This document shows positions 34,352-57,731 of a DNA stretch of 64,000 nucleotides, in pieces. A program made the position numbers and the translations under genes. Under the pieces are notes generated by a model. The model saw only the letters and a list, made by a program, of their open reading frames with translations. It had not been told where the DNA came from and ran no database searches. Positions within the stretch are counted from its first letter, which is position 1. Every line of letters starts with the position of its first letter. Source of the stretch: Candidatus Poribacteria bacterium (GTDB lineage Bacteria > Poribacteria > WGA-4E > PCPOR2b); contig OZ242326.1 of assembly GCA_965208325.1 (NCBI GenBank), positions 854,725-918,724 of the forward strand, given 5' to 3'.

Positions 34352-37237
34352 TTGGCAATGAGGAAATCGGTCACACCCGTCCCCAATCCCCAGCAACAGA
34401 AGGCGATTCGGACAACAGAAGGGCCGCTGCTCATTATTGCTGGTCCTGGATCTGGAAAGACCTTTACGCTTGTTGAGCGTATCAATCTCTTAATTTCGCA
34501 AAAGGGAATTCCGCCGGAATCGCTCTTCGTCGCAACTTTTACTGAAAAAGCCGCGGCCGAACTGATCAGTCGAATCTCACTAAAATTGGATTCCGCCAAA
34601 ATCACCGCCAATCTGAACGAGATGTACATTGGCACCTTCCACTCCATCTGTCTTCGATTTCTTGAGGAACACCGTAGATTTACCCGCCTGGCGCGCAACT
34701 TCACCTTATTAGATCAATTCGATCAGCAGTATTTTCTTTATCAGCGCTTGTCTGACTATCAGGCGATTGAGGGAAGTGAGCATATTTTGGATAATCCAAG
34801 AGCTACATGGTGGGGTAAGGCGGAAAATCTTATGAAATGGGTGAACAAGGTGAGCGAGGAGGCGCTTGCCCCGGAAGATTTGCTTGATGCCGACGAGCCT
34901 GAAGTTCAAGCGCTTGGACGCTGTTATCAACAGTATCAGGCACATCTCGAAGCCGAAAACTGCCTTGATTTTTCCACGATTCAAGTTGAGGCGTTGCGTC
35001 TGCTCGACCAATACCCGGAGGTACTTGACGAGATTCGCACTAAGATTCAGTATTTGATGATCGATGAGTTTCAGGACACCAACACCGTTCAAGAAATCAT
35101 CCTGTTCAAACTTGCCGAACCGAACTACAATCTCTGCGTTGTAGGTGACGATGACCAAGGACTTTACCGATTTCGGGGCGCGACGATACGTAACATTCTC
35201 CAATTCCCGCAGCGGTTCCCGCCGGGAGATTGCCAGCAAGTCAAACTCACGACCAACTACCGATCGCACCCGGATGTCATCGGTTTTTACAACGATTGGA
35301 TGGATAGCCTTGATTGGTCCGAGGACGGCAAAACTTTCCGCTATGAGAAAACAATTGTTGAAAACTCGGAACGAGAATTCACGGAGGTGCCGGCCGTGCT
35401 GAAGGTCTCAGGTGAATTAGACTCTGAGAACTGGCACGAGGAAGTCCTTGCGTTCCTTCGCCACCTAAAAGGCAACGGTTCATTGACGGATTGGAATCAG
35501 GTCGCATTCCTTTTTCGATCGGTGCGGAATGAGAAAGTCGTTGCACTCGCAGGCGCGTTGGAGGAAAACGGAATTCCCGTCTATTCCCCGCGATCTAATC
35601 TGTTCTTCGACCGGGCAGAAATTCGCCTCATGATCGGCGCGTTAATTTTCCTCTTCCCCCAATTTGAAAATGTTCGGAAGTGGAATAAAGACGCTTCGCT
35701 TGATATCTGGAACTATTACGATGACGACTGTTTTCGGGATTTTGCTGACGAACTCCGCAAGCCAGACAATAAGTCTATGTTGGCGTGGTGCAGAAGGCGA
35801 GCAAAAGCGCATCTCCACCTGATAGAGTCGACAGACTATGCCTTCTCTGGGCTGTTCTACGAATTGTTGCAGTTTCCACTATTCAGTCAATACCTTGGCG
35901 AAGCTACGCAAGGCGGAGCAATAGACACCCGTCCTGCCCGAAACTTGGCAATTTTATCCCAACTCCTCAGCAAGTATGAGTATCTGCATCACATCAACGT
36001 CTTAACGCCTGATTATCTGAACACGAATCTACGCAGGTTGTTCAATCGTTATTTTCGATTCCTTAAAGAGGGTGGGATTGAAGAATTCGAGGATGCGTCT
36101 GATTATGCGCCAACAGGCTGCGTCTCCTTCATGACGATTCATCAGTCTAAAGGGTTGGAATTTCCGGTTGTATTAGTAGGCTCAATGGAAGCCAGACCTT
36201 ACAAGCAACACACGGACCTTGATGCTGTGCTCCAGCGGAATTACTATAGAAAGCCGCCGTTTGAACCATTGGAGAATACCAAAAGCTATGACTTCTGGCG
36301 ACTTTTTTACACGGCATTTTCCCGAGCACAAAATCTACTAATTCTCACCTGTCAGGAACGAAAGGGGCGGTGGCCTGCTCCATCTGGATATCTCAGCGAT
36401 TCCTACGCTCAAACCTGCGCATGGCGGGACCCCGCATTTCAATCACAAAACCTCACACTTGAAACAATCAGGGAAGTATCTCTAAAGCATGAGTATTCAT
36501 TCACGTCCCATATCACCCTATATGAGAACTGCGCGCGGCAATACAAATTCTACCGCGACCTCCAGTTTGCCCCAATTCGGCGGAACCCAATCCTCTTCGG
36601 GGTCGTGGTACATCAGACTATTGAGGACATCCACAAAGCCGTTCTACGAGGCGAAGAAAACAGTGTCACTGATGAACAAATTTCGCGCTGGTTCAACGCC
36701 AACTATACTCACCTGTCTCGTCAAGAACGCCTTTATTTAAGCGCGGGCGGCCAAAATGCCGCCTTGGAACACGTCCTGAGATATGCTCACCGTGAGCGCA
36801 GAACATGGGATCGCCTTCGCGAAACAGAGGTCAAGGTTTCCGTTGTGAAGGACACCTACTTTTTAACCGGACATGTGGACTTAATCCGCGGCGAAGACGA
36901 GTCAATGGAAATTGTGGATTTTAAGTCGGAACGTAAACCTGACCTATTTGGCGAACGCGAGACGTTAGACCGCTACCGGCGTCAACTCGAAGTCTATGCC
37001 CACATTGTAGAAGGACGCACCGGGCACAAGATTAGTAGAATGCACCTCTACTACACAGGAGAGGACAATAGTAATCCTTATGTCAGTTTTGACAAGAATC
37101 CGCGCTCAATTAATCGCACGATGGCAGCCTTTGACGATGTCGTTGAGCGTATCGAAGCAAAAAATTTCGAGATATCGGGACGTCCGGAGAAACTGTGCAA
37201 GAATTGTGACATGAAGGCATATTGTGATGCGATATAG
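34352..37237 (+). CDS. UvrD/PcrA-like SF1 helicase fused to C-terminal Cas4/AddB-like PD-(D/E)xK nuclease with Fe-S Cys cluster
   Basis: Helicase motifs 'QQQKAIRTTEGPLLIIAGPGSGKTF' (Q/I), 'VGDDDQGLYRFRGA', 'TTNYRS', 'TIHQSKGLEFPVVLV'. C-terminal nuclease with 'YENCARQYKF', 'VDLIRGEDESMEIVDFKSER', 'QLEVYAHIV' and terminal 'CKNCDMKAYCD' (four Cys). Confidence 0.7.
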   Translation: MAMRKSVTPVPNPQQQKAIRTTEGPLLIIAGPGSGKTFTLVERINLLISQKGIPPESLFVATFTEKAAAELISRISLKLDSAKITANLNEMYIGTFHSICLRFLEEHRRFTRLARNFTLLDQFDQQYFLYQRLSDYQAIEGSEHILDNPRATWWGKAENLMKWVNKVSEEALAPEDLLDADEPEVQALGRCYQQYQAHLEAENCLDFSTIQVEALRLLDQYPEVLDEIRTKIQYLMIDEFQDTNTVQEIILFKLAEPNYNLCVVGDDDQGLYRFRGATIRNILQFPQRFPPGDCQQVKLTTNYRSHPDVIGFYNDWMDSLDWSEDGKTFRYEKTIVENSEREFTEVPAVLKVSGELDSENWHEEVLAFLRHLKGNGSLTDWNQVAFLFRSVRNEKVVALAGALEENGIPVYSPRSNLFFDRAEIRLMIGALIFLFPQFENVRKWNKDASLDIWNYYDDDCFRDFADELRKPDNKSMLAWCRRRAKAHLHLIESTDYAFSGLFYELLQFPLFSQYLGEATQGGAIDTRPARNLAILSQLLSKYEYLHHINVLTPDYLNTNLRRLFNRYFRFLKEGGIEEFEDASDYAPTGCVSFMTIHQSKGLEFPVVLVGSMEARPYKQHTDLDAVLQRNYYRKPPFEPLENTKSYDFWRLFYTAFSRAQNLLILTCQERKGRWPAPSGYLSDSYAQTCAWRDPAFQSQNLTLETIREVSLKHEYSFTSHITLYENCARQYKFYRDLQFAPIRRNPILFGVVVHQTIEDIHKAVLRGEENSVTDEQISRWFNANYTHLSRQERLYLSAGGQNAALEHVLRYAHRERRTWDRLRETEVKVSVVKDTYFLTGHVDLIRGEDESMEIVDFKSERKPDLFGERETLDRYRRQLEVYAHIVEGRTGHKISRMHLYYTGEDNSNPYVSFDKNPRSINRTMAAFDDVVERIEAKNFEISGRPEKLCKNCDMKAYCDAI

Positions 37238-37277
37238 CAAGAGATTCAAATCGACGCAAGACGCAAGGAGAAGATTC

Positions 37278-39194
37278 ATGGAAACACAATCCCATCTCAA
37301 AATTTTAGAACCTATTAATTCTGTTGAATCATACGAATTTGAGCCTATTCAGGGTTACCCCATGCTCAACTGGAAAGGTAAACGCCCTTTCCGATCCACA
37401 CAATACTATCCAGCCCAACTTAAAGAGACGTATGGTGAGGAAGTAGAGGGTTGGCAAAACAAAATATACTGGGGCGATAACTTGCAGGTAATGAGCCATT
37501 TACTTAAAACCTTTCGGGGCAGGATAAACTTGATTTACATTGATCCCCCGTTTGATTCAAAGGCAGACTACAAGAAGCAAATAGAACTTAAGGGAAAGAA
37601 AGTTGAGAACGATAAAAGTGCATTTGAAGAGAAACAATACACTGACATTTGGACGAATGATGAGTATTTACAATTCATGTATGAGCGATTAATCTTGATG
37701 AAAGAATTGTTGGCAGATGATGGGACGATATATGTTCATTCTGACTGGCGAATGAATAGTTACCTTCAATTGGTTTTAAATGAGGTGTTTGGGAAGAGTA
37801 ATTTTCTTAACTTGATAACATGGCGACGGCAAATAGTCCGCGGGATGAAAAAATACGCACGATTCATGCCATTCAGTTCGGATTACATTTATCTCTATGC
37901 AAAAGACAAAAGCAAAGCGATTTGGAACAAAATCGAAAAAGTTAATGCTATCTCATTGAAAAAGGCCGAACAAAAATATAAGAAAGATGATAAAGGATTC
38001 TTCCGAACTTCCGACCGCGGGACATACTCGGACGAGAGCATCATTCAACTCTATAAGGAAGGACGAATTCATGTCACGCACGGTGGAAAATTCCAGATAA
38101 AGGAGGGCAAGGTGTCGGTATCAGCCGGCAAAATTGGCATCAAATATTACCGCGAAACAGTTGGTGATAAAGTCCTTGAAAAAACGGTTTTTGATAATCT
38201 ATGGGATGATATATCTGGATTGGGTATTACTCCCCACGAATATCTTGATTACCCAACCCAAAAACCCGAAGCACTGCTCGAACGTATAATCAAAGCCTCG
38301 TCCAATCCCACCGACATCGTCTTGGACTGCTTCATGGGCAGCGGCACGACGCAAGCGGTCGCTATGAAACTTGGCCGTCGCTTCATTGGGGCAGACATCA
38401 ACCTCGGTGCCGTGGAAACTGCGACAAAGCGTCTCCTGATTGTTGCAGCATCGCTAAAGGAAAAAACGGCACAAAGGCGAATTGAAGAAACCCTAATCCA
38501 CTTTTCGGGATTTGAAGTGTATAACGTCAACCACTATGATGTATTCCGAAATCCCGTTGAGGCGAAAGACCTGTTGATAGAGGCATTAGAGATACAACCT
38601 CTGCCAAACGGCGGTATTTTCGATGGCGAAAAGGACGGGCGCATGGTGAAAATCATGCCAATCAATCGAATTTCAACCCGAGCAGACCTCAACGAACTAA
38701 TCGCGGGATTTAACTACCAAACATTTGAAAGGCGTCAGGAAGAAAATCCAGATGCTCCGGTCGAAAAGCTATTACTGGTCTGCATGGGCCACGAACCTGG
38801 CCTCGCCGCAGCACTGCAAAACGAAGTACCTCACAAACTTGACATAGAAATAATGGATGTTTTGCGCGATAAATCCCGACTAGAGTTCAAGCGTGAATCC
38901 GAAGCGAAGATTGTTCGTAACAACGGATACCTAATCATAGAGCAATTCTACCCGATGAACCTTCTTCAAAAGTTGAGCCTGATAGAGGAAAACGTCGCTG
39001 ATTGGCGCGAACTGGTGGAATCTGTAAAGGTTGACTTCAACTACGACGGCGGGGTGATGAACCCATTAGTGGTCGATCTGGCGAAAGAACATCAACTAGT
39101 TGAGGGCACTTACCCCATTCCAGAAGACGCGGGCACAATCCGAGTTAAAATCACCGATTTGCTGTCAGAATCTTTGGAAAAGACAGTGGAATAG
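37278..39194 (+). CDS. mod: Type III restriction-modification DNA methyltransferase (Mod), beta-class N6-adenine/N4-cytosine MTase
   Basis: 'IYWGDNLQVMSHLL...INLIYIDPPF' (motif IV DPPF) N-terminal, AdoMet motif I 'DCFMGSGTTQAVAMKLGRRFIGADIN' C-terminal (beta order). Shine-Dalgarno 'AAGGAG' 9 nt upstream of the ATG at 37278. The ORF's nominal start at 37224 overlaps the helicase gene. Confidence 0.75.
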   Translation: METQSHLKILEPINSVESYEFEPIQGYPMLNWKGKRPFRSTQYYPAQLKETYGEEVEGWQNKIYWGDNLQVMSHLLKTFRGRINLIYIDPPFDSKADYKKQIELKGKKVENDKSAFEEKQYTDIWTNDEYLQFMYERLILMKELLADDGTIYVHSDWRMNSYLQLVLNEVFGKSNFLNLITWRRQIVRGMKKYARFMPFSSDYIYLYAKDKSKAIWNKIEKVNAISLKKAEQKYKKDDKGFFRTSDRGTYSDESIIQLYKEGRIHVTHGGKFQIKEGKVSVSAGKIGIKYYRETVGDKVLEKTVFDNLWDDISGLGITPHEYLDYPTQKPEALLERIIKASSNPTDIVLDCFMGSGTTQAVAMKLGRRFIGADINLGAVETATKRLLIVAASLKEKTAQRRIEETLIHFSGFEVYNVNHYDVFRNPVEAKDLLIEALEIQPLPNGGIFDGEKDGRMVKIMPINRISTRADLNELIAGFNYQTFERRQEENPDAPVEKLLLVCMGHEPGLAAALQNEVPHKLDIEIMDVLRDKSRLEFKRESEAKIVRNNGYLIIEQFYPMNLLQKLSLIEENVADWRELVESVKVDFNYDGGVMNPLVVDLAKEHQLVEGTYPIPEDAGTIRVKITDLLSESLEKTVE

Positions 39195-39212
39195 CGACTT
39201 ATAGGGGAAAAA

Positions 39213-41816
39213 ATGGCACGAATTGCGCGAACACAGATTAATCTCGATTTCGCCTTCTTCACCTACCTACGCATCTTTTATACTGAGAACCGCGGGCGAA
39301 TTCGCAATCACTTTCGAGATCTATCTAAAAAATTCCTAGATTTCAACACCCCTGAATCAGGGGCGTTTTTGCGCGAACCGCAGTTTGAGGCGTTAGAGAT
39401 GTACATTTTCCTTAAGGAATATCTAGGTAACCGACACGTTCACGAGATTTTCACTGACTGGTACACAAAACAAAACGGGTTTGAAGGGCGGTCAACTCTT
39501 GGTATCGAACAGCTTGAACTGCTTGGAGAACTCAATACGACGCAATACGAGGCTGTATTCCGCTATATTAGAAAATCTGGAAATCGAAATTATGCGAATT
39601 ATATTTTTGCGCTTCCAATGGGTACGGGCAAGACGATTCTCATGGCAACCTGTATCTTCTACGAGTTTCTGCTCGCCAATAAATTTCCGAAAGATCCAAA
39701 ATATTGTCGTAATGCCCTTGTCTTCGCACCCGATCGAACGGTGTTACAGTCTCTCAAAGAGATTCAGACCTTCGACATGACAAAAGTTATACCGCATGAA
39801 TACTTCAATTTCCTTTCACGCCACATCCAATTCCACTTCCTTGAAGAAGCCGGAACTACACTCTCTACAATGGACCGCTCGCAATTCAACATTATCATCT
39901 CCAATGCGCAGAAGATAATACTCAAAAAGCAACACACTGAGAAAAGTGCCAGTGAACGCTTGTTTAAGAGCGGAGCACCGACTTACAAACCGGGAAGCGT
40001 CTACGACCAATTTTCAGGTCTCTACAATTTTGACACGCCCGAAGATGAGAACGAATTAACAACCAATCAGCGATTTCAGAAACTGACAAGGCTTGAACAA
40101 CTCGCAATCTTTGTCGACGAGGCACATCATGCGTTCGGCAGTAAACTGGCAAGGGACATGGGGCTTCAGAAGTCAAAGACCAGTCTGCGGCTTACCATTG
40201 ATGAACTTGCGGCAAGTTTGGAGCGTGCGGGAACGCGCGTCTGCGCCTGCTACAATTTCACGGGTACACCATACGTCGGGCAACAGGTCTTACCCGAAGT
40301 AGTTTACGGGTACGGGTTAAAAGAAGCAATTGACAAAGGATTCTTGAAAAAAGTTAGGCTTCATACCTACACCAATCCTAAAGACTCGGAGTTTGTGCGA
40401 CTGACGATTAAGGATTTCTGGGACAATCATCGTGGATTACGACATGAAGGGATGTTGCCGAAACTCGCACTATTTTCATCCACAATCGACGAGTTAAAGA
40501 ACGATCTTCGCCCCGCTGTTGAATCGGCGTTAAGCGAGTTTGGTGTGCCGCTCTCTAGCATCCTTGTTAATGTGGGAGATTCAAAGCTGACATCCAACGA
40601 TGAACTCCGCGAGTTTATTAACCTTGACACCCAATCATCCGAAAAACAGTTTATCTTGTTAGTCAATAAAGGAAAAGAAGGATGGAACTGCCGATCGCTG
40701 TTTGGCGTGGCACTTTACCGGAGACCGAAATCCAAAATTTTTGTTCTACAAGCCAGTATGCGATGCTTACGGCAGATTGGCGAAGACCAGCAAACTGGAC
40801 ACATTTATCTTTCCGCAGAGAATGCTCAGATTCTTGATGACGAGTTGCAGCAAAACTTCCGCGTGTCCGTCAATGAAATTCATAACTTCGGTGTTGAAAA
40901 ATTAAATTATAAGGTACGAGTTAACAAACCGCCCGTGAACGTGACGCTCAAACGCATCAGAAAGTTGCACCAGCTGGTAGAAAAGCAATCCCAGAACGGG
41001 CTGTGTTTGGAGCTCGATCAGATAGACACAGAAAAGTATCGCTTAATACACGAAGAAAGTGAAGGGCTGGCGGCTCCTCACCCGATTCTAACGGAGGACC
41101 TATCCGAATACAAGTTAAAGCGAGATTTCAGTCAGTTGACGCTGTGTGCGGAAATTTCTCGCTACCTAAATCGATCTCCGCTGAAAATTGAGGAAATGCT
41201 GACGAATACAGAAGAAGGGATGCAAAGGATTCTGTCGAATGTCAATGAGTTTAATGAACTACTTTACGACTGGATAATTCCACGAATTTTTAAGGCATTA
41301 TATGATTTGCAGGAATTTGAAAATCACGAATCAGAAGAAATTGAATTGGTTAAGGAGCCCGAGGAGGGGTACTACACTGTTCGGGCGACGCCTAACCTTG
41401 TTTTTACAGATAACAACACTGAAGTAATACAGCACCGGCGAAAGAGTTTTCACTTGGACACCTACGCTTTTGACTCCAACCCTGAAAAGGCTTTATTTTG
41501 GTCACTGCTGCGGGCTGGAAAAGTTAAAAAAGTGTATTTCACAGGAATGCTGACGCATGGGCAATCAGATTTTTACATCCAATACATTGACCCAGAATCG
41601 CATGCAGTCAGGCGATATTATCCCGATTTCCTCATGCGGAAGGATGACGACTCATGGGTCATCGTCGAAGTAAAGGGTGACAATATGGTTGACGACCAGA
41701 TAGTTCAGGCAAAAGCTGCGGCTACCTATCAGCGAGCAAATGCAAGTCGCATGACATACAAAATCATTAAGGGCAGCGATGCTCAGGCGGGAAGATATAG
41801 TTCATTGTTGGAATAG
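39213..41816 (+). CDS. res: Type III restriction enzyme Res subunit (SF2 DEAH helicase plus C-terminal PD-(D/E)xK endonuclease)
   Basis: Walker A 'FALPMGTGKTILMA', DEAH 'IFVDEAHHAF', C-terminal nuclease 'YYPDFLMRKDDDSWVIVEVKGD'. 867 aa, immediately downstream of Mod. Confidence 0.7.
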   Translation: MARIARTQINLDFAFFTYLRIFYTENRGRIRNHFRDLSKKFLDFNTPESGAFLREPQFEALEMYIFLKEYLGNRHVHEIFTDWYTKQNGFEGRSTLGIEQLELLGELNTTQYEAVFRYIRKSGNRNYANYIFALPMGTGKTILMATCIFYEFLLANKFPKDPKYCRNALVFAPDRTVLQSLKEIQTFDMTKVIPHEYFNFLSRHIQFHFLEEAGTTLSTMDRSQFNIIISNAQKIILKKQHTEKSASERLFKSGAPTYKPGSVYDQFSGLYNFDTPEDENELTTNQRFQKLTRLEQLAIFVDEAHHAFGSKLARDMGLQKSKTSLRLTIDELAASLERAGTRVCACYNFTGTPYVGQQVLPEVVYGYGLKEAIDKGFLKKVRLHTYTNPKDSEFVRLTIKDFWDNHRGLRHEGMLPKLALFSSTIDELKNDLRPAVESALSEFGVPLSSILVNVGDSKLTSNDELREFINLDTQSSEKQFILLVNKGKEGWNCRSLFGVALYRRPKSKIFVLQASMRCLRQIGEDQQTGHIYLSAENAQILDDELQQNFRVSVNEIHNFGVEKLNYKVRVNKPPVNVTLKRIRKLHQLVEKQSQNGLCLELDQIDTEKYRLIHEESEGLAAPHPILTEDLSEYKLKRDFSQLTLCAEISRYLNRSPLKIEEMLTNTEEGMQRILSNVNEFNELLYDWIIPRIFKALYDLQEFENHESEEIELVKEPEEGYYTVRATPNLVFTDNNTEVIQHRRKSFHLDTYAFDSNPEKALFWSLLRAGKVKKVYFTGMLTHGQSDFYIQYIDPESHAVRRYYPDFLMRKDDDSWVIVEVKGDNMVDDQIVQAKAAATYQRANASRMTYKIIKGSDAQAGRYSSLLE

Positions 41817-41855
41817 GGCATAATCGCAAACATTAAGAGTTCGGGGTCGTTCTTT

Positions 41856-42698
41856 TTGGCAATGAGAAAGATCAAAACAGGACTACGCTGGCTCTGTGGG
41901 AAGGTCGGCAAACTTAGTTTTGAACACATACCCCCGGAAAAAGCATTCAACGACCAGAAAGTTTTCCATGACTGCGTTATCAACATCCTTGAAAACCAAA
42001 AGCTTAAAACATCTCAACGAGGTGTTGGGGACCATACGCTGTGTATTACCTGCAACAATAATACAGGTACAATGTATGGGTCTGCTTTTGTAGAATTTTG
42101 CAAACGTGCTGCTGACGTGCTGTCTCAGGCGTACGGTTATCCTACGCTGCATTACGAGTATAGTACCTACCCCTTGCGGGTCATTAAACAAATCGTAACG
42201 ATGTTCTTTTCGACCAATAGCCCAGAATGGCGGAAATCATGTCCTGATTTGGAGAAATTCGTATTGGATAAGCAGGATAGATACCTGCCTGAAAGATACG
42301 GCATCTTCCTCTATTACAATATTGAAGGTACGCTGCTGAAGCACACAGGCATACAACGTGTGCTTAAATTCGACCCCGACTGGATTGCTTCACCCAACCT
42401 GTCAGAATTCAGTGAAATCGTGCACCCTCCTTTCGGGTATTTGATGACAACAGACTCGGACAAACCAGATGATAGGCTGTTTGACATTTCTTGGTTCAGC
42501 AATTTCACCTTTGATGACTATCGGCGAGTGTATCTAAAAATTCCCGTGTTACCCATTTACACAATGTATGCGGGGCAATATCCGAGTCGAAAAGAAATAG
42601 ACGAAATTCGACGCAAAAATCCGGCACGAGGTCTCCAAGATTACCTTGAAGACATCGTGAGTCAGTCTGTCAACAGGAAAGGCGAACAATCCAAATAG
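41856..42698 (+). CDS. hypothetical protein with N-terminal HNH-like motif
   Basis: 'LCGKVGKLSFEHIPPEKAFND...HTLCITCNNNTG' resembles the HNH beta-beta-alpha-Me core (E-H, N, CxxC). The remaining roughly 200 aa are unassigned. Confidence 0.35.
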   Translation: MAMRKIKTGLRWLCGKVGKLSFEHIPPEKAFNDQKVFHDCVINILENQKLKTSQRGVGDHTLCITCNNNTGTMYGSAFVEFCKRAADVLSQAYGYPTLHYEYSTYPLRVIKQIVTMFFSTNSPEWRKSCPDLEKFVLDKQDRYLPERYGIFLYYNIEGTLLKHTGIQRVLKFDPDWIASPNLSEFSEIVHPPFGYLMTTDSDKPDDRLFDISWFSNFTFDDYRRVYLKIPVLPIYTMYAGQYPSRKEIDEIRRKNPARGLQDYLEDIVSQSVNRKGEQSK

Positions 42699-47925: not shown

Positions 47926-48550
47926 GGTAAACTCCTTTTAATTGAGCAAAATAAAATCATCACCTATAATCATAGCCGGCATCGCTGTCCTTTATCACTT
48001 AATGCCGAACTTGTAGCGGCTTTGACCCCGCCCCCAATCTCAGAAGACGGCTTTCGCGATGCCTAGCAATCGGAATCACTAAACCCATTTGGAATTTAGC
48101 AGCAAATAACAGACAGAAATCGATGAACGCGTATCGTTTGGCAAGGAAATGATTTGCGCCGTACATCGGCATTTCAATCTTAGATTGACGCTCTTGTTAT
48201 TCTTCATTAAGTAATGATTTATGATACCACAAGAAACCTTTCTCGGCAACGCCAAAAATCTGCGAACGCCGGTTGACGGATACTCCTGTCCTAGTATAAA
48301 ATCTTAAATTTTCACAAATTGTATTTTACCGCCACCACGCATTATATCCGATACTGTCAGTAACGCTTTTTTTAATGAGAAAACTCATAGTTGAGAATCT
48401 ACCGCCGGATGCCACATAGAAACTGAAAATCATGTAAACTTCTTTAAACTTTGTAAACTTGATCGAGAGAAAATTTCATCAAAATTTACGTCGCTACAAC
48501 TTGACATACTTCGAGGTTTTGTCGACATCTCTTTATAAGGTTGTGGCATT

Positions 48551-48916
48551 ATGTTAAGAATGATGCCGATAACCTTACCTGATAACCAATGGGAAAAAAT
48601 ATATGAGTTTCTTCTGGGTTGTTCCAACATCTTTGTCCGCAACGAAGCCGAAACCCGACGATTCGTCGAAGCTGTCCTGTGGGTGGCTCGCAGCGGTGCG
48701 CAATGGAGATTATTGCCTACTGCTTATGGCAAGTGGAACTCCATTTACAAGCGGTTTAGTAACTGGTGCGACATAGGAATCTTCGAACATATGCACCGCC
48801 ACTTTGCCTCCGACCCAGATATGGCGTCGCTTATTATTGACTCGACCATTTGCCGGGCTCACCCATGCGCACCTGGCGCCTCAAAAAAAACGGGGGTGCC
48901 GAAAACCAAGCGTTAG
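48551..48916 (+). CDS. IS5-family transposase OrfA
   Basis: 'MLRMMPITLPDNQWEKIYEFL...AQWRLLPTAYGKWNSIYKRFSNWCDIGIFE', a conserved IS5/IS427 OrfA. Confidence 0.75.
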   Translation: MLRMMPITLPDNQWEKIYEFLLGCSNIFVRNEAETRRFVEAVLWVARSGAQWRLLPTAYGKWNSIYKRFSNWCDIGIFEHMHRHFASDPDMASLIIDSTICRAHPCAPGASKKTGVPKTKR

Positions 48917-49230
48917 GACGTTCTCGCGGCGGCTTCAGCACCAAGATTCACATCACAGTTGACGCACTAGGTAATCCGCTTAGACTCCAGCTAACCCCCG
49001 GTCAGAGACACGACATAGCTGAAGCCGAATCGTTGATAGTTGGATATAACAGCCAGCATGTAATTGGAGACAAAGGATATGACTCAGTTGAATTTATCAC
49101 CGTTATTGAAGCCAATGGTGCCATTCCGGTGATACCACCACGACGTAATCGTGGTGCTCAAAGAACATTCGACCCCCATTTATACAAAGAGAGACATCTA
49201 GTCGAATGTTTCATCAAAAAAAAATACTAA
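48850..49230 (+). CDS. IS5-family transposase OrfB (DDE domain), expressed by frameshift from OrfA
   Basis: 'GFSTKIHITVDALGNPLRLQLTPGQRHD...VIGDKGYDS', a DDE transposase motif. Confidence 0.7.
   Translation: MPGSPMRTWRLKKNGGAENQALGRSRGGFSTKIHITVDALGNPLRLQLTPGQRHDIAEAESLIVGYNSQHVIGDKGYDSVEFITVIEANGAIPVIPPRRNRGAQRTFDPHLYKERHLVECFIKKKY
48883..48890 (+). promoter_or_regulatory. A8 slippery run - candidate programmed -1 frameshift site in IS5 transposase
   Basis: 'TCAAAAAAAACGGGGG' lies inside the OrfA/OrfB overlap. Confidence 0.5.
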
Positions 49231-49614
49231 TCCACGCCACATCACCAACAGCGATTCACCATCCGTGGCAACGCCGCATGATTATGTGCCCACGTAATCA
49301 TAGCCCATCGTTTAATCATACAAATCACAGTTCAGACAGTCTTCTCAATAACGCAACACTACACCCGCCGCGGCAACAATATGTAGGTTTCATTTTGTTT
49401 TTCGAGATTCCCACCGAGCGCCAAAGAATGCCCTGAATCAGAATCCAAAACAACACTGTCCCAAAATTTCCCCTTCATACCCACCTGCAACGGCACAAAC
49501 CCTTGCCCCGTCCGCATCCAAGCGATGGATTTTTCAACCCTTTCCGCCAAAAACCCCGATAACCTCGCACTCCGCCTTGACAATCGCTAAATCTCAAAGT
49601 ATACTACAATTATT

Positions 49615-50148
49615 ATGCCAACTACAAATGTCCAATTCGGCGAATCGGACATTGACTTCACCATTGAGCGTTTTGCTTATTATGGTGAGGGAAAAGCTAA
49701 TGCGAAGCGCGTAATTCGTGATGTATGTGATTATTTTGGGATTGAAGACAATGCTAGCAATCATAAATTATTATCCAATAAAATTCGTACCTTTAATCCC
49801 AACCGAAAAGACTGCGCAGAGCATTATCGGAGTCGCTATCTCATGAAACGAAATCAGGTTCTTACACACAGACACGAACCCAACGGCATTTTTTCACAAC
49901 AGCTACATGCACTTTTACTCGTTGCATTCAAAGTTCTGTCTGAAGAGATGACGCCGCCCCTCGCACTCAAGCTCATTGAAGCCGAAATCCGATTCGCAAT
50001 TGAAAACAAACACATAAATGTTCAGGAAAGAATTGAACGACAATGTTTAGCCGCCGACACGGGAGATAGTTCATTTCTAAATGGAAAGACGGAGCCGGAT
50101 TTACGGAAACCACAGTCGGTTTCTGAAAATCCATCGCGCATACCATAG
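49615..50148 (+). CDS. hypothetical protein; could be a frameshifted N-terminal part of the downstream terminase
   Basis: 177 aa with no recognisable motif. Overlaps the terminase ORF by 68 nt. Confidence 0.3.
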   Translation: MPTTNVQFGESDIDFTIERFAYYGEGKANAKRVIRDVCDYFGIEDNASNHKLLSNKIRTFNPNRKDCAEHYRSRYLMKRNQVLTHRHEPNGIFSQQLHALLLVAFKVLSEEMTPPLALKLIEAEIRFAIENKHINVQERIERQCLAADTGDSSFLNGKTEPDLRKPQSVSENPSRIP

Positions 50149-51895
50149 TGTAAGCGTGCCGTCCGCCATTAAAAGAACTGGAGAGGAACAGGACATCTAT
50201 CTCCGCGGCTTCCATGATGTCCTCTTCTTTGCCAAGCATCACTTTCCCAATGTGTTTACGGTGGAGTGCGGTCCCCATGCTTCTCCTATTCTGAATTGCA
50301 TTCCTTCAGGTGAGCGCGGACAGCGCGTCAATATTATTGCGCCTAGAGGTTGCGGCAAAAGCACCTACATCGCCGTAATCTATGTGCTGCACTGCGTTTA
50401 CTACAAAGACGAATACGAACGGCGCGGCTTAATGCCCGATAGCTTCATCGTTATCCTGTGCGGTACCAAAGACCTCGCTGTGGCGCGGCTGCACGACATC
50501 CGAGACAAAATCGAGGACGATCCCAACTTCCGCCATCTCAAAGGAAACGGTAAGTGGAGCGCGGACCAGCTCGATACGGCAAACGGAGCATGCCTAATTC
50601 CCGTCGGGCGGCACGGAAGAATCCGCGGTGAACTCAAGGATCTCGCAAGACCGACGCTAATTATCCTCGACGATGTTGAAGACTGCGAGGAAGTCCAAAA
50701 CCCCCGTATCCGAGATAAAAACTGGAAATGGTTCAACGAAGATGTCATGGCTGCTGGTAGAATTGACGGCAAGACTAACTTCATCCACGTCGACACCGTA
50801 AAGCACGAGGAAGCCATCTCCAAGCGTCTGCAACTTCTGCCCGACTGGTACAACCAATTCTACCGTTCTATTGAACATCCCCGAGACCTACGCCACCCCA
50901 CCGCCGAACCGTTTTGGGAAGAGTGGCAGAAAATCTATACGGACTTGACGCTCGAAAAAGACGAGCGTGACCGCCTTGCGCATGCATTTCTTGAGGAACA
51001 CAAGAATGAAATGCTGGACGGCATCCAAGAACTCTGGCCCCAAATGCTCTCGTACACCTACATCCGGCGGCTCATCTGCAACGATGGCTATATCCCCGTC
51101 ATGCGTGAGCGGCAAAACTCGACACGCGACCCTTCTAAAGAAATTTTCAACATGGAAAAAGCCGTTCGCTTCAAAATCACGCCCGACGGACTCTTGCGTA
51201 GCGACGGGCGGCTAGTCCTATGGAGCGACATCGCTGGCGGTACAGTTTTCCTCGACTGGGCTGGCGGAAAGGACGCTTACGATTCCTGCTACGCCGCCGC
51301 TGTGTTTGTCGTGTGGGAACCGCTGCCTCAAGCGACTATGAGGCGTAAGGGAGAACCGGTTGCCGCCCTCTCTAACACCCACGCCTACGTCCTGAACGTC
51401 TGGATGGACAAAGTCCCCGTCACGACCCAACTCGAGGAGACTTTTAAACTCATAAAGCGCAGTGTCAGCGCTGTACCGAACATTCGATTCGATTCCATCC
51501 TGCTCGCAGTCGAGGAAATTCCGAAAGACACCGGTAACGCGTTACACACCATGATATCGCGGGCTTTTAAGGGTGCGCGGGAAAAATACGGCATGACCTC
51601 GTTAGTCCGCCTTAAATTCCACAAACGAAGTGTCCGGAAGTTGGACCGCATCGCCGCGTTGGAACCGCCAATCGCCAACGGTTGGCTCGTCTTCAATGAG
51701 ACGCTGCCAGAAGTGTTTATGCGCCAGATGCGGCAATTCCCGACCGGGGATTTCTGCGACGGTCCCGACGCCCTGCAAGGCGGGACTGAGTTGCCCATCA
51801 CGCGCTTCCCCGCCCATAAACTGCCGCACGGAATGCCGATGCCGTTCGACGACGATCCGGACGCGCCAATGCACGTTATAAGGAGTTATCTATGA
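50081..51895 (+). CDS. phage terminase large subunit (TerL) - ATPase plus RNaseH-like nuclease
   Basis: Walker A 'NIIAPRGCGKSTY', Walker B 'TLIILDDVEDCEE', C-terminal acidic nuclease region 'VFLDWAGGKDAYDSCYAAAVFVV'. The start codon is uncertain. Confidence 0.65.
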   Translation: MERRSRIYGNHSRFLKIHRAYHSVSVPSAIKRTGEEQDIYLRGFHDVLFFAKHHFPNVFTVECGPHASPILNCIPSGERGQRVNIIAPRGCGKSTYIAVIYVLHCVYYKDEYERRGLMPDSFIVILCGTKDLAVARLHDIRDKIEDDPNFRHLKGNGKWSADQLDTANGACLIPVGRHGRIRGELKDLARPTLIILDDVEDCEEVQNPRIRDKNWKWFNEDVMAAGRIDGKTNFIHVDTVKHEEAISKRLQLLPDWYNQFYRSIEHPRDLRHPTAEPFWEEWQKIYTDLTLEKDERDRLAHAFLEEHKNEMLDGIQELWPQMLSYTYIRRLICNDGYIPVMRERQNSTRDPSKEIFNMEKAVRFKITPDGLLRSDGRLVLWSDIAGGTVFLDWAGGKDAYDSCYAAAVFVVWEPLPQATMRRKGEPVAALSNTHAYVLNVWMDKVPVTTQLEETFKLIKRSVSAVPNIRFDSILLAVEEIPKDTGNALHTMISRAFKGAREKYGMTSLVRLKFHKRSVRKLDRIAALEPPIANGWLVFNETLPEVFMRQMRQFPTGDFCDGPDALQGGTELPITRFPAHKLPHGMPMPFDDDPDAPMHVIRSYL

Positions 51896-52132
51896 TGGCT
51901 GAATTAACCAACATGTTAGGGCCTTCAAAAATGAGCATTCTCAACTTATTTTTTCTGGCGCACAACAATGCTCAACGCCCCAAACCCGCTCCCTGTCTAG
52001 CTTTCCACGCGTTTTGCTTATTTCACTATGTCCCAAATACTCAAAAAATAAGCAAATCCAATATCCCAAATTTACCTCGCCTCAACTTAACCAAAGTCAC
52101 GCTTATTTCCCTGAACATGTGCCAAATTTCAT

Positions 52133-52636
52133 TTGGAGAGAGGCCGAGATATGACTAAAATTGTTAGCACGCTTCTCGCGTTTGGGGCTATAGCCGCTGT
52201 CATGCTTGTTTTCATTGTTACTCTTTTGCACAGCGACTCCTTCAATATACGTACGTCATCTGAGCCCGAGAGTGTTGAACTTGATGCGGCAAATCAGTCG
52301 CCAAATAATCTGGGATTGTCTTCCGAAGTGGACTTTTTGTTTGGGAGACCTAGATGGTTGCCGGGTGGGGTGATTCAAATTATCCCAACTGTCGGCGTGG
52401 ATTTTGGGTTCATCCGACCAATCGCATCCGGGTATGCTGTCGGAAGGTCATTCATGGTCGGTACGAGCACCACGCTATCCGATGAAGAGTTAGGTTTCAG
52501 CACAAAACATCGCGTCTCCTTTGAAACGGGAATCCGCGTTTACCTATCCCCTTCGCAGTATGTGTCGATCACTTGCGGCAAACAGTACGACGAAGATAGC
52601 GTTACGACAAACTTTAAAACTGCGTTGCGGCTTTAA
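52133..52636 (+). CDS. hypothetical membrane-anchored protein
   Basis: N-terminal TM 'IVSTLLAFGAIAAVMLVFIVTLL'. 167 aa. Confidence 0.4.
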   Translation: MERGRDMTKIVSTLLAFGAIAAVMLVFIVTLLHSDSFNIRTSSEPESVELDAANQSPNNLGLSSEVDFLFGRPRWLPGGVIQIIPTVGVDFGFIRPIASGYAVGRSFMVGTSTTLSDEELGFSTKHRVSFETGIRVYLSPSQYVSITCGKQYDEDSVTTNFKTALRL

Positions 52637-53945: not shown

Positions 53946-55778
53946 TTGCTGCGTTTTGCGAAAACACACAACGGCGTTGCCGTAAGATTTTTATCACAGC
54001 ATGGACCATCATTCAATTTCAGTCCGAACAATGGTAGGAAACCGCTGCTTCCAATTTTTCTCACAATTCAATTGACCGGTTTGATTGCTGCCGTTTTCGC
54101 GGCGGAGATATACGGGGGGCAAAAGGAGGAATCTATGATGCGAAGTGAACAACTAGTGGGTACCCCCAACACCCTGGATTTGGTAGAGCGGGCGCGGTAT
54201 GCGATTAACGCGATGACGCAAAGCACCAATCCGGAAGCGGAGTACGCGGTCTACTTCACCGGGGTGCTTCACCGCAATCCGCCGACGCTATTGAGGGAAA
54301 TCCCGCTGTACGGAAAATTCATGGAAGGGTTGGCTTTAATGCGCATCATGACGAGCGGCGAATTCGATACACGCGCATCTACGCAACCCGATGATTTTAA
54401 CCGGCATGTGGACCGCGTCTGGCGGGAAGCCTTTCTGCGCAAGCTAAAGAAACAGGAACTTACATTAGTTGGCGCCGAAGGCGGACGGCAGCTCGCTTGG
54501 TTGGCGATCCAATATCAACAGACCCAAGACTCAATGTGGAAAGAACTCGGCGAAACGGTGATTCAGCGGGCGCTAAAAACGACGGTCCATCAAAACGGCT
54601 ACTGCTATTTCCCGACTGACGCGGAAGGCACAATGCCGACGAGTTGGGAGGCGACCTACCAAGGGTGGACGCTCCAGGGCGTAACCCAATTTTATATGGC
54701 GACCGGCTCTGAAGCGGCGCTGGAACTGGCGGGCAAACTCGCCCGCTACTTGAAAGATCACTCCGGCATGTTTGATGCCGACGGACGCTTTCTCGCACGC
54801 CACGACGTTGATGTTCCGCTCGACCCGCCGGCTACACTTGGACCTGCGCTGCATTTCCACCACAATGGCAACACGATGGAAGCGCTCTCGGAGTATGCGT
54901 GGGCAAGCGGCGAATCGGAATTTGGAGAATTCGCCAAGAAATGCTACGAATACGCCCGTTCACTCCCCGACTCATCGCCGCTTATCGGCTTTTTCCAAGA
55001 GTACATCGACGATTGGCCCGATAACCGCGGTGTCATAGACTGCGAAACCTGCTGTGTCGTTGACATGATGTTGACTGCGCTCTGGATGACGAAGGCGGGC
55101 GTGGAGGATTATTGGGACGATATCGACCGATATTTGCGAAACCAGTTCGCCGAGATGCAGATGACCTCCGGAGATTGGTTAACCCGGATGACAGAAGCAC
55201 TGCCGTATCGGCCGCCGGGCGAGGGCGAAATTGCCATGGGGTCGCCGGACCGCTGGGTCGGCACCTTCGCCGGTTGGGCGACTGCCAATGACTTCTTCGC
55301 CATCGGCGCAGGTCCCGGCATCATGCACTGCTGCACCGGCAACGGGTCACGGGCGCTTTACTACCTTTGGGAGAATATGCTTGAGTTCAGCGGCGGAGAG
55401 TTACGGCTCAATCTACTGCTCAACCGGAATTCTCCGTGGGTCGAGGTCAGCAGCCGCATCCCGTATGAAGGCAAGGTTGAGTTGAAGGTCAAGGCGGGGT
55501 GTGAAAATATTTCGGTTCGCGCGCCCGAATGGGTGGAAGGCTCAAACGGCGCAATGTCGTGCCGCGTTAACGGCGCCTCCCGAAACTTCAGTTGGAAGGG
55601 CCGCTGTGTACACATCGGCAAAGCCGCACCCGGTGATAAAGTTGAAATTACATTTCCCATATCGAATCGGACGGTGGAAGAAACGGTAGGCGGTGTGCCG
55701 TACACGCTTGTAATCCGGGGCAATAACGTGATTTCCATCTCTCCGCCGGGGAAGCATTACCCTTTTTATAACCGATAA
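53946..55778 (+). CDS. DUF1680 / GH127-like six-hairpin glycoside hydrolase family protein, membrane-anchored (paralog 1)
   Basis: N-terminal anchor 'LLPIFLTIQLTGLIAAVFAA'. 'DCETCCVVD' (E-x-C, 55041-55055) and 'HCCTGNG' (55327-55345) match the Glu/Cys/Cys-Cys zinc/catalytic arrangement described for GH127 beta-L-arabinofuranosidase. C-terminal beta-sandwich. Confidence 0.45.
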   Translation: MLRFAKTHNGVAVRFLSQHGPSFNFSPNNGRKPLLPIFLTIQLTGLIAAVFAAEIYGGQKEESMMRSEQLVGTPNTLDLVERARYAINAMTQSTNPEAEYAVYFTGVLHRNPPTLLREIPLYGKFMEGLALMRIMTSGEFDTRASTQPDDFNRHVDRVWREAFLRKLKKQELTLVGAEGGRQLAWLAIQYQQTQDSMWKELGETVIQRALKTTVHQNGYCYFPTDAEGTMPTSWEATYQGWTLQGVTQFYMATGSEAALELAGKLARYLKDHSGMFDADGRFLARHDVDVPLDPPATLGPALHFHHNGNTMEALSEYAWASGESEFGEFAKKCYEYARSLPDSSPLIGFFQEYIDDWPDNRGVIDCETCCVVDMMLTALWMTKAGVEDYWDDIDRYLRNQFAEMQMTSGDWLTRMTEALPYRPPGEGEIAMGSPDRWVGTFAGWATANDFFAIGAGPGIMHCCTGNGSRALYYLWENMLEFSGGELRLNLLLNRNSPWVEVSSRIPYEGKVELKVKAGCENISVRAPEWVEGSNGAMSCRVNGASRNFSWKGRCVHIGKAAPGDKVEITFPISNRTVEETVGGVPYTLVIRGNNVISISPPGKHYPFYNR

Positions 55779-55829: not shown

Positions 55830-57731
55830 TTGATTCGTGGTAGTTTGATATGCGCCGCACAATTCAACCTACCTACTAATGTCAATGACGATGATATGAC
55901 ATATCCCAACGATTCACTAATCGGTCTTATAGAAAAAGACCCATCAACAATGAGACGGCTATGCATTTTCAATCCCTCGAAACGTTGGAAACTGAGACTC
56001 CCATTATTTCGCGCGATTCTGCCGATCGGGTTAATTGCCGCCGTTTTCGTTTCGGGGGGCTACGGAAAGCTCAAGGAGGAACCAACGATGCAAAATGAAC
56101 AATTAGCAGAGGCACCCAACACGCTGGATTTGGTAGAGCGGGCTGGGTATGCGATTAACGCGATGACGCGAAGCACCAATCCGGAAGCGGAGTACGCGGT
56201 CTACTTCACCGGCGTGCTCCACCGCAACCCGCCGACCCTATCAGGGCAAATTCCACTGTACGGAAAATTCATGGAAGGGACGGCGTTGATGCGCATTATG
56301 ACGAGCGGCGAATTCAACACACGCCCATCTTCCCAACCCAAGGATTTCAATCGACACGTGGACCGCGTCTGGCAAGATGCGTTTGTGCGGTTACTGACTG
56401 AAAGTAAGCCGGTGCTTACGGGACCCGAAGGCGGACGGCAACTCGCATGGTTAGCCATTCAGTATCGGCGGACGAATAACGAAATGTGGAAAGAACTCGG
56501 TGAATCGGCGATTCAGCGCGCGCTTGATGCGGCAGTCCATCAAGATGGCTACTGTTATTTCCCGCACGGCGCAGAAGGGACGATGCCGACGGGCTGGGGG
56601 GCGACCTACCAAGGGTGGACGCTTCAAGGGCTCAGCCAGTTTCATATTGCGACCGGTTCGGACGTTGCACTGGAACTGGCGGGCAAACTTGCCCGCTATT
56701 TGAAGGATTACGCTGGCGTTTTTGATGCGGACGGCCGGTTTCTATCGCGCCACGGCGATTCCATTCCGCACAGCCCGCCAGCCACACTGGGACCTGCACT
56801 GCATTTCCACCACAACGGCAATGCGATGGAAGGGCTGATGGAGTACGCGTTGGCGAGCGGCGATGCGGAATATGCTGAATTCGCGAAAAAATGCTATGAA
56901 TACGCCCGTTCGCTCCCCGACTCATCGCCGCTTATCGGCTTTTTTCAGGAGTACATTGACGATTGGCCCGATAACCGCGGCGTCATTGACTGCGAAACCT
57001 GCTGTGTTGTTGACATGATGCTGACGGCGCTCTGGATGACGAAGGCGGGTGTTGGCGATTATTGGGACGACATTGACCGGTACATGCGGAACCAGTTCGC
57101 CGAGATGCAGATGACCACCGGAGATTGGCTGGAAAAAATGAATGAAGGGCTATCATATCAACCGCCGGGCGATGATGAGATTGCGATGGGTTCACCTCAG
57201 CGTTGGATCGGCACCTTCGCCGGTTGGGCGACTGCCAATGACTTCTTCGCCATCGGTGCAGGTCCAGGTATTATGCACTGCTGCACCGGCAACGGGTCAC
57301 GGGCGCTTTACTATCTCTGGGAAAATACGCTAGAATACAACGACGGAGAGTTACGGCTCAATCTGCTTCTTAACCGGCAATCTCCATGGGTGCAAGTCAG
57401 CAGCCATATCCCGTATGAAGGCAAGGTTGAGTTGAAGGTCAAGGCAGGGTGTGAAAATATTGCCGTTCGCGCGCCCGAATGGGTGGAAGGGTCGAGCGGC
57501 GTACTGTCGTGCCGCGTCAACGGCGCCGTCCGCAAAATTAGTTGGACGGACCGCTATGTGCACATCGGTGAAGCGGCGCCTGGCGACACAGTTGAACTCG
57601 CATTTCCGATATCTGAACGGACGGTCGAGGAAACAGTTGGCGGTGTTCCTTATACGCTTGTAATCAGGGGAAATAACGTGGTTTCCATCTCACCGCAGGG
57701 AAAGAATTATCCGTTTTACCACCGTAATTAA
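55830..57731 (+). CDS. DUF1680 / GH127-like protein, tandem paralog 2
   Basis: About 75% amino-acid identity to paralog 1 with identical 'DCETCCVVD' and 'HCCTGNG' motifs. Long stretches of near-identical DNA. Confidence 0.45.
   Translation: MIRGSLICAAQFNLPTNVNDDDMTYPNDSLIGLIEKDPSTMRRLCIFNPSKRWKLRLPLFRAILPIGLIAAVFVSGGYGKLKEEPTMQNEQLAEAPNTLDLVERAGYAINAMTRSTNPEAEYAVYFTGVLHRNPPTLSGQIPLYGKFMEGTALMRIMTSGEFNTRPSSQPKDFNRHVDRVWQDAFVRLLTESKPVLTGPEGGRQLAWLAIQYRRTNNEMWKELGESAIQRALDAAVHQDGYCYFPHGAEGTMPTGWGATYQGWTLQGLSQFHIATGSDVALELAGKLARYLKDYAGVFDADGRFLSRHGDSIPHSPPATLGPALHFHHNGNAMEGLMEYALASGDAEYAEFAKKCYEYARSLPDSSPLIGFFQEYIDDWPDNRGVIDCETCCVVDMMLTALWMTKAGVGDYWDDIDRYMRNQFAEMQMTTGDWLEKMNEGLSYQPPGDDEIAMGSPQRWIGTFAGWATANDFFAIGAGPGIMHCCTGNGSRALYYLWENTLEYNDGELRLNLLLNRQSPWVQVSSHIPYEGKVELKVKAGCENIAVRAPEWVEGSSGVLSCRVNGAVRKISWTDRYVHIGEAAPGDTVELAFPISERTVEETVGGVPYTLVIRGNNVVSISPQGKNYPFYHRN

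Follow-up and report, generated by a model that had tools for sequence, protein, structure and literature searches.

An intact large terminase gene and its probable small partner in a recurrent chromosomal unit of Poribacteria

Terminase genes are commonly taken as a hallmark of a virus or prophage. In headful (pac) phages with a P22-type portal, of the kind represented by the uncultured phage contig L004 (43 kb), the holoterminase is encoded by two adjacent, overlapping genes, that for the small subunit (TerS) followed by that for the large subunit (TerL). Gene transfer agents (GTAs) have domesticated such genes, and g1 and g2 of RcGTA have been retained vertically under purifying selection. 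The Nu1-like noh genes of Escherichia coli K-12 are terminase fragments of defective lambdoid prophages, which are typically truncated and lie inside recognisable prophage remains. Among satellites, PMC10690885 describes phage-inducible chromosomal islands (PICIs) of the Staphylococcus aureus pathogenicity island (SaPI) type, which carry TerS alone together with integrase and replication genes, and capsid-forming PICIs (cf-PICIs), which carry TerS, TerL, HNH and capsid genes. Here we describe an intact TerL gene and its probable TerS partner in a 64-kb stretch of DNA from a member of the candidate phylum Poribacteria (contig OZ242326.1, positions 854,725 to 918,724; hereafter the window), where the pair is a free-standing chromosomal unit under selection that recurs across the phylum.

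The conserved unit is ~2.5 kb long (~49577–52092 of the window) and comprises a promoter, a putative TerS gene (49615–50148, 177 aa), a TerL gene (50081–51895, 604 aa) and a 197-nt non-coding tail, with the two overlapping open reading frames (ORFs) lying exactly where a preliminary description of this DNA had placed them. As in the L004-type holoterminase, the two genes are adjacent and overlapping, small then large, and TerL combines an ASCE ATPase with an RNase H-like nuclease, with all catalytic residues and a fold close to those of T7-like, T4, HK97 and D6E terminases. Unlike that holoterminase, the unit has no adjoining portal, scaffold, capsid, tail, lysis or replication genes; it has its own sigma-70 promoter, a stable residence in several unrelated chromosomal sites, an N-terminal extension of ~60 residues and the conserved non-coding tail. 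Like PICIs, it is a chromosomal non-phage element encoding terminase subunits, presumably steering packaging into helper particles (PMC10690885, PMC11389934). Satellites, however, span 8–20 kb, with an integrase, a replication module and a regulatory switch (and, in cf-PICIs, capsid genes), none of which is present in the 2.5-kb unit, while SaPIs lack the TerL that the unit possesses and no att sites were found at the unit. The pair resembles the terminases of GTAs such as RcGTA in being phage-derived, fixed in a bacterial lineage and under purifying selection at the level of host genes, but GTA terminases are single-copy and head a contiguous head-tail cluster, whereas the unit is multi-copy and diverged and adjoins no such cluster. 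Finally, it shares with the noh-type fragments of cryptic prophages the presence of chromosomal terminase genes without a functional phage, but both of its genes are full-length and conserved over synonymous distances (dS) of up to 0.9, and the unit has defined edges. The proteins themselves (TerL and TerS) are of known kinds, but no satellite described so far has the make-up of the unit. The searchable literature yielded no selected chromosomal unit that is multi-copy and consists of terminase genes alone, and nothing pertinent on orphan, domesticated or Poribacteria terminases.

The two terminase genes

The preliminary description had read the 604-aa ORF, on the plus strand, as a TerL with Walker A, Walker B and a nuclease domain, and this assignment is supported by profiles, motifs, a structural model and the pattern of substitution. 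In the PHROGs database the protein matches phrog_38 ('terminase large subunit') with an E-value of 2.1e-47. In Pfam it has a single sub-threshold match, to the DEAD-box family, and none to a terminase family; the matches in NCBIfam, to the T7 and psiM2 terminases, are weak and below cut-offs; and a PDB sequence search gave no match, all of which points to a divergent TerL lineage. The protein has an N-terminal ATPase (residues ~60–345) and a C-terminal RNase H-like nuclease (~360–570), and an alignment (A2) of 21 homologues reaches down to 35% identity. Within the ATPase, the Walker A motif or P-loop (APRGCGKST, residues 87–95; 50339–50365, plus strand) has P88, R89, K93 and T95 invariant in all 21 homologues, and the Walker B motif (LIILDDVED, residues 193–201; 50657–50683, plus strand) has L193, D197 and D198 invariant, so that the ATPase motifs proposed earlier do align across these homologues. 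The acidic residues of the nuclease (51254–51769, plus strand), D392 (51254–51256), E478 (51512–51514), D560 (51758–51760) and D563 (51767–51769), are likewise invariant, and in the model they lie on a beta strand, at a beta-strand end and at a helix start of the RNase H-like domain.

The AlphaFold2 (AF2) model, built on the alignment of 21 homologues, has a mean predicted local distance difference test score (pLDDT) of 81. When it was compared with the PDB using Foldseek, 32 of the 35 matches with E ≤ 0.001 were terminases, the exceptions being two chains of a deep-sea helicase and one chain of Cdc48. The best fold matches were the TerL of PhiV-1 (8dgc_E, 4e-16), T4 gp17 (1e-11) and HK97 (8e-10), followed by D6E and T7; taken separately, the ATPase domain resembled those of T4 and P74-26, and the nuclease those of human cytomegalovirus pUL89, herpes simplex virus pUL15 and P74-26. 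Judged by sequence and predicted fold, the 604-aa protein is a TerL that is divergent but complete. In the NCBI annotation the gene begins at a GTG at 50156 and encodes 579 aa; this is probably too short, since the first 25 residues read from the ATG at 50081 are conserved in orthologues of 602–608 aa. A scan of IMG/VR returned distant phage relatives alone, at no more than 35% identity.

The 177-aa ORF directly 5' of TerL, also on the plus strand, overlaps it by 68 nt in a different frame. It had been suggested that this ORF might be the frameshifted N-terminus of TerL, and we reject that reading: in seven loci, as in the phage contig L004, the two frames are kept apart and each ends at a stop codon of its own, and the upstream frame is under purifying selection. 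In all seven loci the ORF is intact and overlaps the TerL start, and in close relatives it encodes 162–177 aa, is 63–87% identical and ends at its own stop 23–68 nt inside the TerL ORF. In L004 the gene order is a 184-aa ORF, TerL and a P22-type portal (P22_portal); the 184-aa ORF overlaps TerL by 8 nt and its product is 24% identical to the window protein (pairwise E 6e-6), and the two TerLs are 46% identical. The same layout is thus found in the seven chromosomal copies and in the phage contig L004/L005, where the portal lies 3' of TerL. A jackhmmer search over the fetched loci recovered the family as the ORF directly 5' of TerL in 26 loci besides the window, portal-bearing prophages included (a count that leaves out one further match, L068).

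Neither Pfam, PHROG and NCBIfam nor PDB sequence and profile searches gave a match for the window protein, and 18 diverse members of its family had none among the PHROGs. The AF2 model (pLDDT 76) is all-helical, with a three-helix, DNA-binding-like N-terminal domain, a long helix at residues 114–149 and a disordered C-terminal tail; a conserved R-T-x-N-P-N...C motif is present, and no match in the fold search reached significance. Its position, size and co-inheritance with TerL, together with the predicted helical architecture, make the 177-aa protein the probable cognate small terminase. It defines a small, so far unannotated family of 56 clusters at 50% identity among 1.84 billion representatives. 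One TerS-like protein, P0097 (192 aa; genome OZ251998.1), occurs with exactly the same sequence on 26 different contigs; either one population may have been assembled many times or the gene may be present in many copies.

Recurrence, edges and selection

In a genome scan this TerL family was represented by 34 loci in Poribacteria, with between two and four on each chromosome, all relatives being from uncultured, metagenome-assembled genomes. By ORF clustering and a portal hidden Markov model (HMM), a P22-type portal is present in seven of the 34 loci and lacking in ~27, and TerL is full-length in 32. In a neighbour-joining tree of TerL, which is a rough distance tree without support values, the window falls in a clade made up entirely of orphan terminases (clade A), and other orphan clades are sister to portal-bearing phage and prophage clades, an arrangement that argues for repeated derivation from phages. 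The relatives that do adjoin a portal belong to phages and prophages of the same phylum. No clade-A locus has a match to the portal HMM. The two disrupted members of the family are L037, in which TerL (9866–11677) is split into pieces of 221 and 376 aa, and L038 (7632–10900), in which it is interrupted by an opposite-strand ORF of 384 aa.

Among the Poribacteria, the same unit occurs in at least five unrelated chromosomal contexts with identical sharp edges. In blastn comparisons with L001/L007, L002 and L008, the match to the window is confined to ~49625–52092 and the flanks are unrelated; as for genes, the 10 kb on either side of the copies in L002, L006, L007, L008 and L085 encode none of eight proteins that flank the window unit. 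By contrast with these, L084 is a syntenic orthologue, with the order PEGA, outer-membrane protein, TRL, unit, 161-aa gene, major facilitator superfamily (MFS) transporter and GH127, and nucleotide identity between it and the window is 85.5% over the unit and 88% over the flanks. Between these two genomes, the unit has been inherited vertically with its surroundings. Copies also coexist within a genome: OZ242351.1 carries L006 and L007 (TerL 92% and 81% identical to that of the window), a second TerS-like protein (P0075, 68% identity) is encoded on the 4,707,648-bp contig from which the window is taken, and at least two genomes have two unit copies each. In a second clade (clade B), three copies in OZ245030.1 share the 3.0-kb unit alone, at 90–92% identity, and the unit there consists of a 670-nt non-coding leader, a TerS of helix-turn-helix type and TerL. 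Terminase-only units thus form a multi-copy family throughout the phylum, to which the window unit belongs; this goes beyond the readings offered in the preliminary description, and the recurrence of related units, several per genome, suggests a working module and not prophage debris.

The edges of the unit are marked by conserved non-coding elements. A sigma-70-type promoter (TTGACA-17 nt-TATACT; 49577–49605, plus strand), with 11 of 12 consensus matches, stops 10 nt short of the start codon of TerS. The five clade-A loci that were aligned all retain its two hexamers, whereas beyond it L007, L002 and L008 have unrelated upstream sequence. An upstream leader (49400–49576, plus strand) is common to the syntenic L084 and the non-syntenic L006, with blastn alignments covering 49400–52094 of the window in the former and 49291–52092 in the latter. 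Within the TerS ORF there is an inverted repeat (49640–49997) with arms at 49640–49660 and 49977–49997, 316 nt apart; the pair with this spacing is present in the window, L002, L006, L007 and L008 and is a candidate cis site. As both arms lie in conserved coding sequence, their conservation may be a by-product of protein coding.

At the 3' end, homology stops at ~52092 in all copies, after a 197-nt tail (51896–52092, plus strand) with an AT-rich hairpin, a T-run and several invariant blocks. Its pairwise identity to the window ranges from 0.60 to 0.91, and in each of the four pairs with both measurements it exceeds that of TerL synonymous sites (0.70–0.91 versus ~0.48–0.82). Since the tail also carries frame-breaking indels of 1 and 2 nt among orthologues, this comparison of alignments indicates that it is a selected non-coding element. 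The hairpin and T-run may form a terminator, and the tail as a whole is a candidate for a terminator plus a cis-acting site. Two other views of the tail were rejected. A structured RNA finds no Rfam match, no covariation support and a fold z-score of −1.8 on the plus and −0.2 on the minus strand; and an 88-aa ORF at 51892–52158, with an ATGA overlap and an AGGAG, is not a third gene, because the 1-nt and 2-nt indels break its frame and L008 lacks its start codon.

Nei-Gojobori estimates among five clade-A copies gave ratios of non-synonymous to synonymous substitution (dN/dS) of 0.13–0.20 for TerL and 0.11–0.36 for TerS, at dS values of up to 0.9–1.8 and with no internal stop codons. For the window and L084, the values were 0.136 (TerL) and 0.183 (TerS), compared with 0.11–0.19 for three neighbouring host genes, and the clade-B unit gave 0.18–0.29. 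By these estimates, purifying selection on the unit is as strong as that on the host genes next to it. Both ORFs are intact in seven of seven clade-A copies.

These data bear directly on whether the pair is all that is left of a degraded prophage, as the preliminary description had considered, and an inert leftover that does nothing today. Its genes are of phage origin, an insertion sequence (IS) remnant adjoins the window unit and an IS3 transposase the L006 copy, and two of the 34 family members (L037 and L038) are disrupted, all of which would fit such a reading. Against this, the ORFs of all clade-A copies are intact, the unit boundaries are identical in five unrelated contexts, the promoter and tail are conserved, and dN/dS is 0.13–0.20 at dS of up to 0.9, a distance over which a 1.8-kb ORF would not have survived neutral decay. 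We therefore consider such decay of a prophage unlikely and strongly disfavour an inert leftover, giving it a very low probability. Nor was a clade-A TerL at >75% identity, as a possible source of recent transfer, seen in complete phage genomes in the IMG/VR and homologue searches.

The surroundings of the unit likewise do not resemble a prophage. When 40 of the larger ORFs of the 64-kb window were compared with Pfam, they fell into ordinary cellular (metabolic or envelope), transposase or IS, or restriction-modification families, or had no match; portal, capsid, tail and integrase families were not among the matches. The window also contains no tRNA gene, and no integrase, att sites, structural genes or lysis genes contiguous with the terminase were found in it. 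The absence of portal, capsid and integrase genes reported in the preliminary description thus holds across the window, where portal or capsid genes would have pointed to an ordinary prophage, and only its lack of a small terminase has to be revised, given the probable TerS. A PICI-like satellite, which had also been considered, is not borne out: no integrase, repressor, replication module or att site belongs to the unit, which has two genes in 2.5 kb between host-gene flanks that are syntenic in L084. No unit-specific flanking direct repeats were found, and a direct repeat at 48482–48505 and 52068–52091 (83%), tried as att-like ends, had no support in other loci.

The pair might alternatively be the packaging part of a GTA-like or defective-phage particle system, with its head and tail genes at other chromosomal loci. 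Its long vertical retention, purifying selection and own promoter resemble those of domesticated GTA terminases, and GTA 'genomes' spread over several loci are documented (PMC5026251). However, known GTA terminases head a contiguous portal-protease-capsid cluster, and no head or tail structural cluster lies in the window or within 10 kb of any of the seven clade-A copies; two to four diverged terminase pairs per genome would be unexpected for a single particle system; and the genome scan found no portal-linked TerL of this family in the genomes that carry clade A. The GTA-like reading of the preliminary description accordingly fails for genes next to the unit and survives, as a rather improbable case, for structural loci elsewhere in the genome. 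Of the readings put forward at that stage, a domesticated terminase, or persistent stand-alone module, fits best, and we consider it very probable that ~49577–52092 is a phage-derived TerS-TerL module that stands alone, is under selection and lies outside any prophage.

Possible action on phage procapsids

We know of no terminase activity without a procapsid portal, every characterised terminase acting on a portal-bearing procapsid, and the module would therefore most likely act in trans. In the mechanism we propose, a related phage, whether infecting or resident, would provide the procapsids. TerS would find its target in a cis site within or beside the unit, for which the tail and the inverted repeat within the TerS gene are candidates, and TerL would cut at that site and pump chromosomal DNA into the borrowed heads. 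The unit would thereby hitch-hike, or be transduced in situ together with the DNA around it, and the diversion of capsids from the phage would amount to packaging interference. We put the chances of the explanation as a whole, a stand-alone module that acts in trans on phage procapsids, at about even; the trans-packaging or interference mechanism itself is proposed more tentatively, at somewhat below even. Reviews treat terminase genes or pac/cos sites as marks of phage-mobilised 'hitcher' elements (PMC11389934), and by analogy a module acting in trans would be a minimal 'hitcher' in the sense of that work.

Several observations weigh against this explanation. The cis packaging site was not found among the elements of the unit, neither structure nor a pattern of repeats being detectable in the tail, and coding constraint alone may account for the inverted repeat within TerS. 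The TerS assignment draws on gene position, size and helical architecture, with no significant profile or fold match. The nearest portal-linked TerLs are just 39–48% identical to clade A, and no helper phage with a closely related terminase or a matching portal is known. Structural genes could lie elsewhere in the genome, since their absence applies to the 64-kb window; the unit, though present at different sites, has no integrase or transposase of its own; and the multiple old paralogues per genome and the proximity of defence loci are no less compatible with a purely host-defensive role.

This last point concerns the neighbours of the units. We checked 15 ORFs downstream of TerL in portal-less units, 11 of which are housekeeping or defence genes and four of which had no match. 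The products of these 11 are serine hydroxymethyltransferase (SHMT), a Mur ligase, an S49 peptidase, an HtrA-type protease, a propeller protein of PQQ/BamB type, a SPOR protein, Nmad3, Cas3, Cas10d (type I-D), an Mrr-ResIII/type IIG enzyme and a type III methylase. Units adjoin CRISPR-Cas genes in L036 (12756–15611, Cas10d of type I-D, 1e-169) and L025 (13133–15565, Cas3), and lie next to the type IIG/Mrr-ResIII enzyme in L034 and the type III methylase in L016; in L085, Cas1/Cas2 (1–1273) are encoded 9 kb upstream of the unit.

Such neighbours are compatible with a dedicated host anti-phage system, in which the captured terminase pair would poison packaging by portal occupation, mixed inactive complexes or concatemer cutting, and any DNA transfer would be incidental. 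Beyond the five loci just named, the window itself has a type III restriction-modification system and a GajB-like UvrD/PD-(D/E)XK protein 8–15 kb upstream of the unit; the diverged paralogues within a genome, each sister to a different phage lineage, resemble an arms-race repertoire; and the purifying selection is at the level of host genes. On the other hand, neither protein has a match in PADLOC-DB 2.0 (E ≤ 0.1), no sensor or effector partner is conserved beside the units, and the conserved non-coding tail is not obviously needed by a pure interference protein. The adjacency to defence genes is anecdotal, a bare count of ~6 in 27 loci, and mobile DNA and defence genes share hotspots anyway. 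We regard a purely defensive role as unlikely, though it is the strongest of the rivals to action in trans.

The discreteness of the unit raises a further alternative, namely that TerL, with its RNase H-fold nuclease and ATPase and guided by TerS, serves as the unit's own transposase or homing enzyme. A self-mobilising element would account for a discrete unit of 2.5–3 kb at many sites, in several copies per genome and with no other recombinase. Some unit edges also coincide with a 21-nt motif, CTCAACCCAACCTACAAGAAC, which flanks the clade-B unit as an inverted pair in L027 and L036 and lies at the right edge in L002 and L006. The motif, however, is dispersed in intergenic DNA in both orientations in several Poribacteria genomes, often as inverted pairs around single genes or a terminase unit (L002 11998–12021 and 12971–12994; L008 8050–8385; the unit edges in L027 and L036; and, in degenerate form, window 52079–52095). 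As it also brackets unrelated genes, we read it as a general recombination substrate similar to repetitive extragenic palindromic (REP) elements and not as element-specific ends. Intragenomic copies of the unit are moreover 8–11% diverged, with no sign of recent transposition; no target-site duplications and no transposase were found; and close relatives of both proteins occur in ordinary phage packaging modules. Self-mobilisation is, in our view, the least probable of the explanations considered.

A second repeat, GATCAACCGACCGAATAGGGA, with a 23-nt period, flanks the unit on either side in L002, L006 and L007, and recurs at 28602–28728 and 31698–31741 of the window. It was rejected as marking element ends because it also surrounds unrelated genes in the window, where it brackets a high-GC block of two genes, a CoA-transferase family III gene (28879–30069) and an ORF at 30069–31283. 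These repeats look like a REP-like or cassette-flanking family of the Poribacteria.

Returning to a module that borrows procapsids, the broadest version of the proposal is one that we think doubtful, if worth stating. Terminase-only units of 2.5–3 kb, each with a promoter, TerS, TerL and a cis element, would constitute an undescribed class of minimal phage-derived modules, captured repeatedly from Poribacteria phages. A genome would retain two to four diverged copies, in many cases next to CRISPR-Cas or restriction-modification loci. Upon infection they would commandeer the procapsids of the invader and, starting at a site in the unit, package chromosomal DNA in situ, in a manner resembling lateral transduction and with no excision, integrase or replication, thereby spreading the unit and neighbouring defence genes and starving the phage of capsids. 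If capsids are borrowed in this way, the unit would be the smallest known route by which chromosomal DNA hijacks phage particles, would extend the spectrum of satellites, GTAs and lateral transduction, and could define a new, packaging-interference type of phage defence. For annotation, TerL matches in Poribacteria, and perhaps in other little-studied phyla, should not be equated with prophages, as virus-host linking and prophage counting based on TerL will over-call there.

Surroundings of the unit in the window and its relatives

The preliminary description had placed the terminase between an IS element and membrane or transport genes, and this is the case. On the 5' side is an insertion block with an IS5-family transposase remnant (48461–49399, plus strand), which lies outside the unit. 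The remnant consists of two overlapping frames (ORFs 48551–48916 and 48850–49230) with Pfam matches to DUF4096 (1.8e-20) and DDE_Tnp_1 (7.9e-14); the latter covers profile positions 14–115 of 200, so that the DDE domain is truncated, and no clean terminal inverted repeats of the remnant were found. As L084 has no such block at the syntenic position, the insertion is recent and has nothing to do with the terminase unit. On the 3' side are a gene for a 167-aa membrane protein, an MFS transporter gene and two GH127-like (beta-L-arabinofuranosidase-like) genes. The last are tandem paralogues (53946–55778 and 55830–57731) with ~80% nucleotide identity, and the duplication is also present in L084.

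The insertion block contains, just upstream of the unit, the window's one copy (49295–49341) of a 48-nt repeat, TTAATCATAGCCCATC.TTTAAT...CACAGTTCAGACAGTC. The repeat occurs three times in L006 (9213–9260, 12258–12305 and 12458–12505), on both sides of the unit, and the downstream copies there sit in a 200-bp tandem duplication; it may be similar to a miniature inverted-repeat transposable element or to an IS end.

Directly 3' of the terminase units of two clades, with more copies upstream, are genes of a paralogous protein family that is predicted to be secreted or membrane-anchored and has the conserved N-terminus MFxIQNWKQALGLMALGS...RDKFGEIECTKLTVVD. Its members (L007 12306–14731, L006 12722–13324, L008 12167–13533, L002 12381–12950 and L029 11950–12267) have no Pfam match, and some of them (for example L007 12306–13124) contain 22-aa repeats of the YGKDGK type. 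The family is not found beside the window unit.

Further upstream in the window, a low-GC block (34352–42698; GC 0.39–0.47 over 37–43 kb) is probably a defence island, 8–15 kb from the terminase unit. Its three defence-type genes encode a UvrD helicase fused to a PD-(D/E)XK nuclease (GajB-like in PADLOC, 2e-60), a type III restriction-modification methylase (37224–39194) and a ResIII helicase (39213–41816), the C-terminus of which has a sub-threshold match to a TnsA-like endonuclease domain; an unannotated 280-aa ORF comes after the helicase. Elsewhere, the window encodes a protein weakly similar to the RuBisCO large chain (37–1227), a multi-haem cytochrome (9867–11102) and, at 16869–20204, a STAND-like protein of 1111 aa with zinc-ribbon, adenylate cyclase, AAA_16 and TPR domains.

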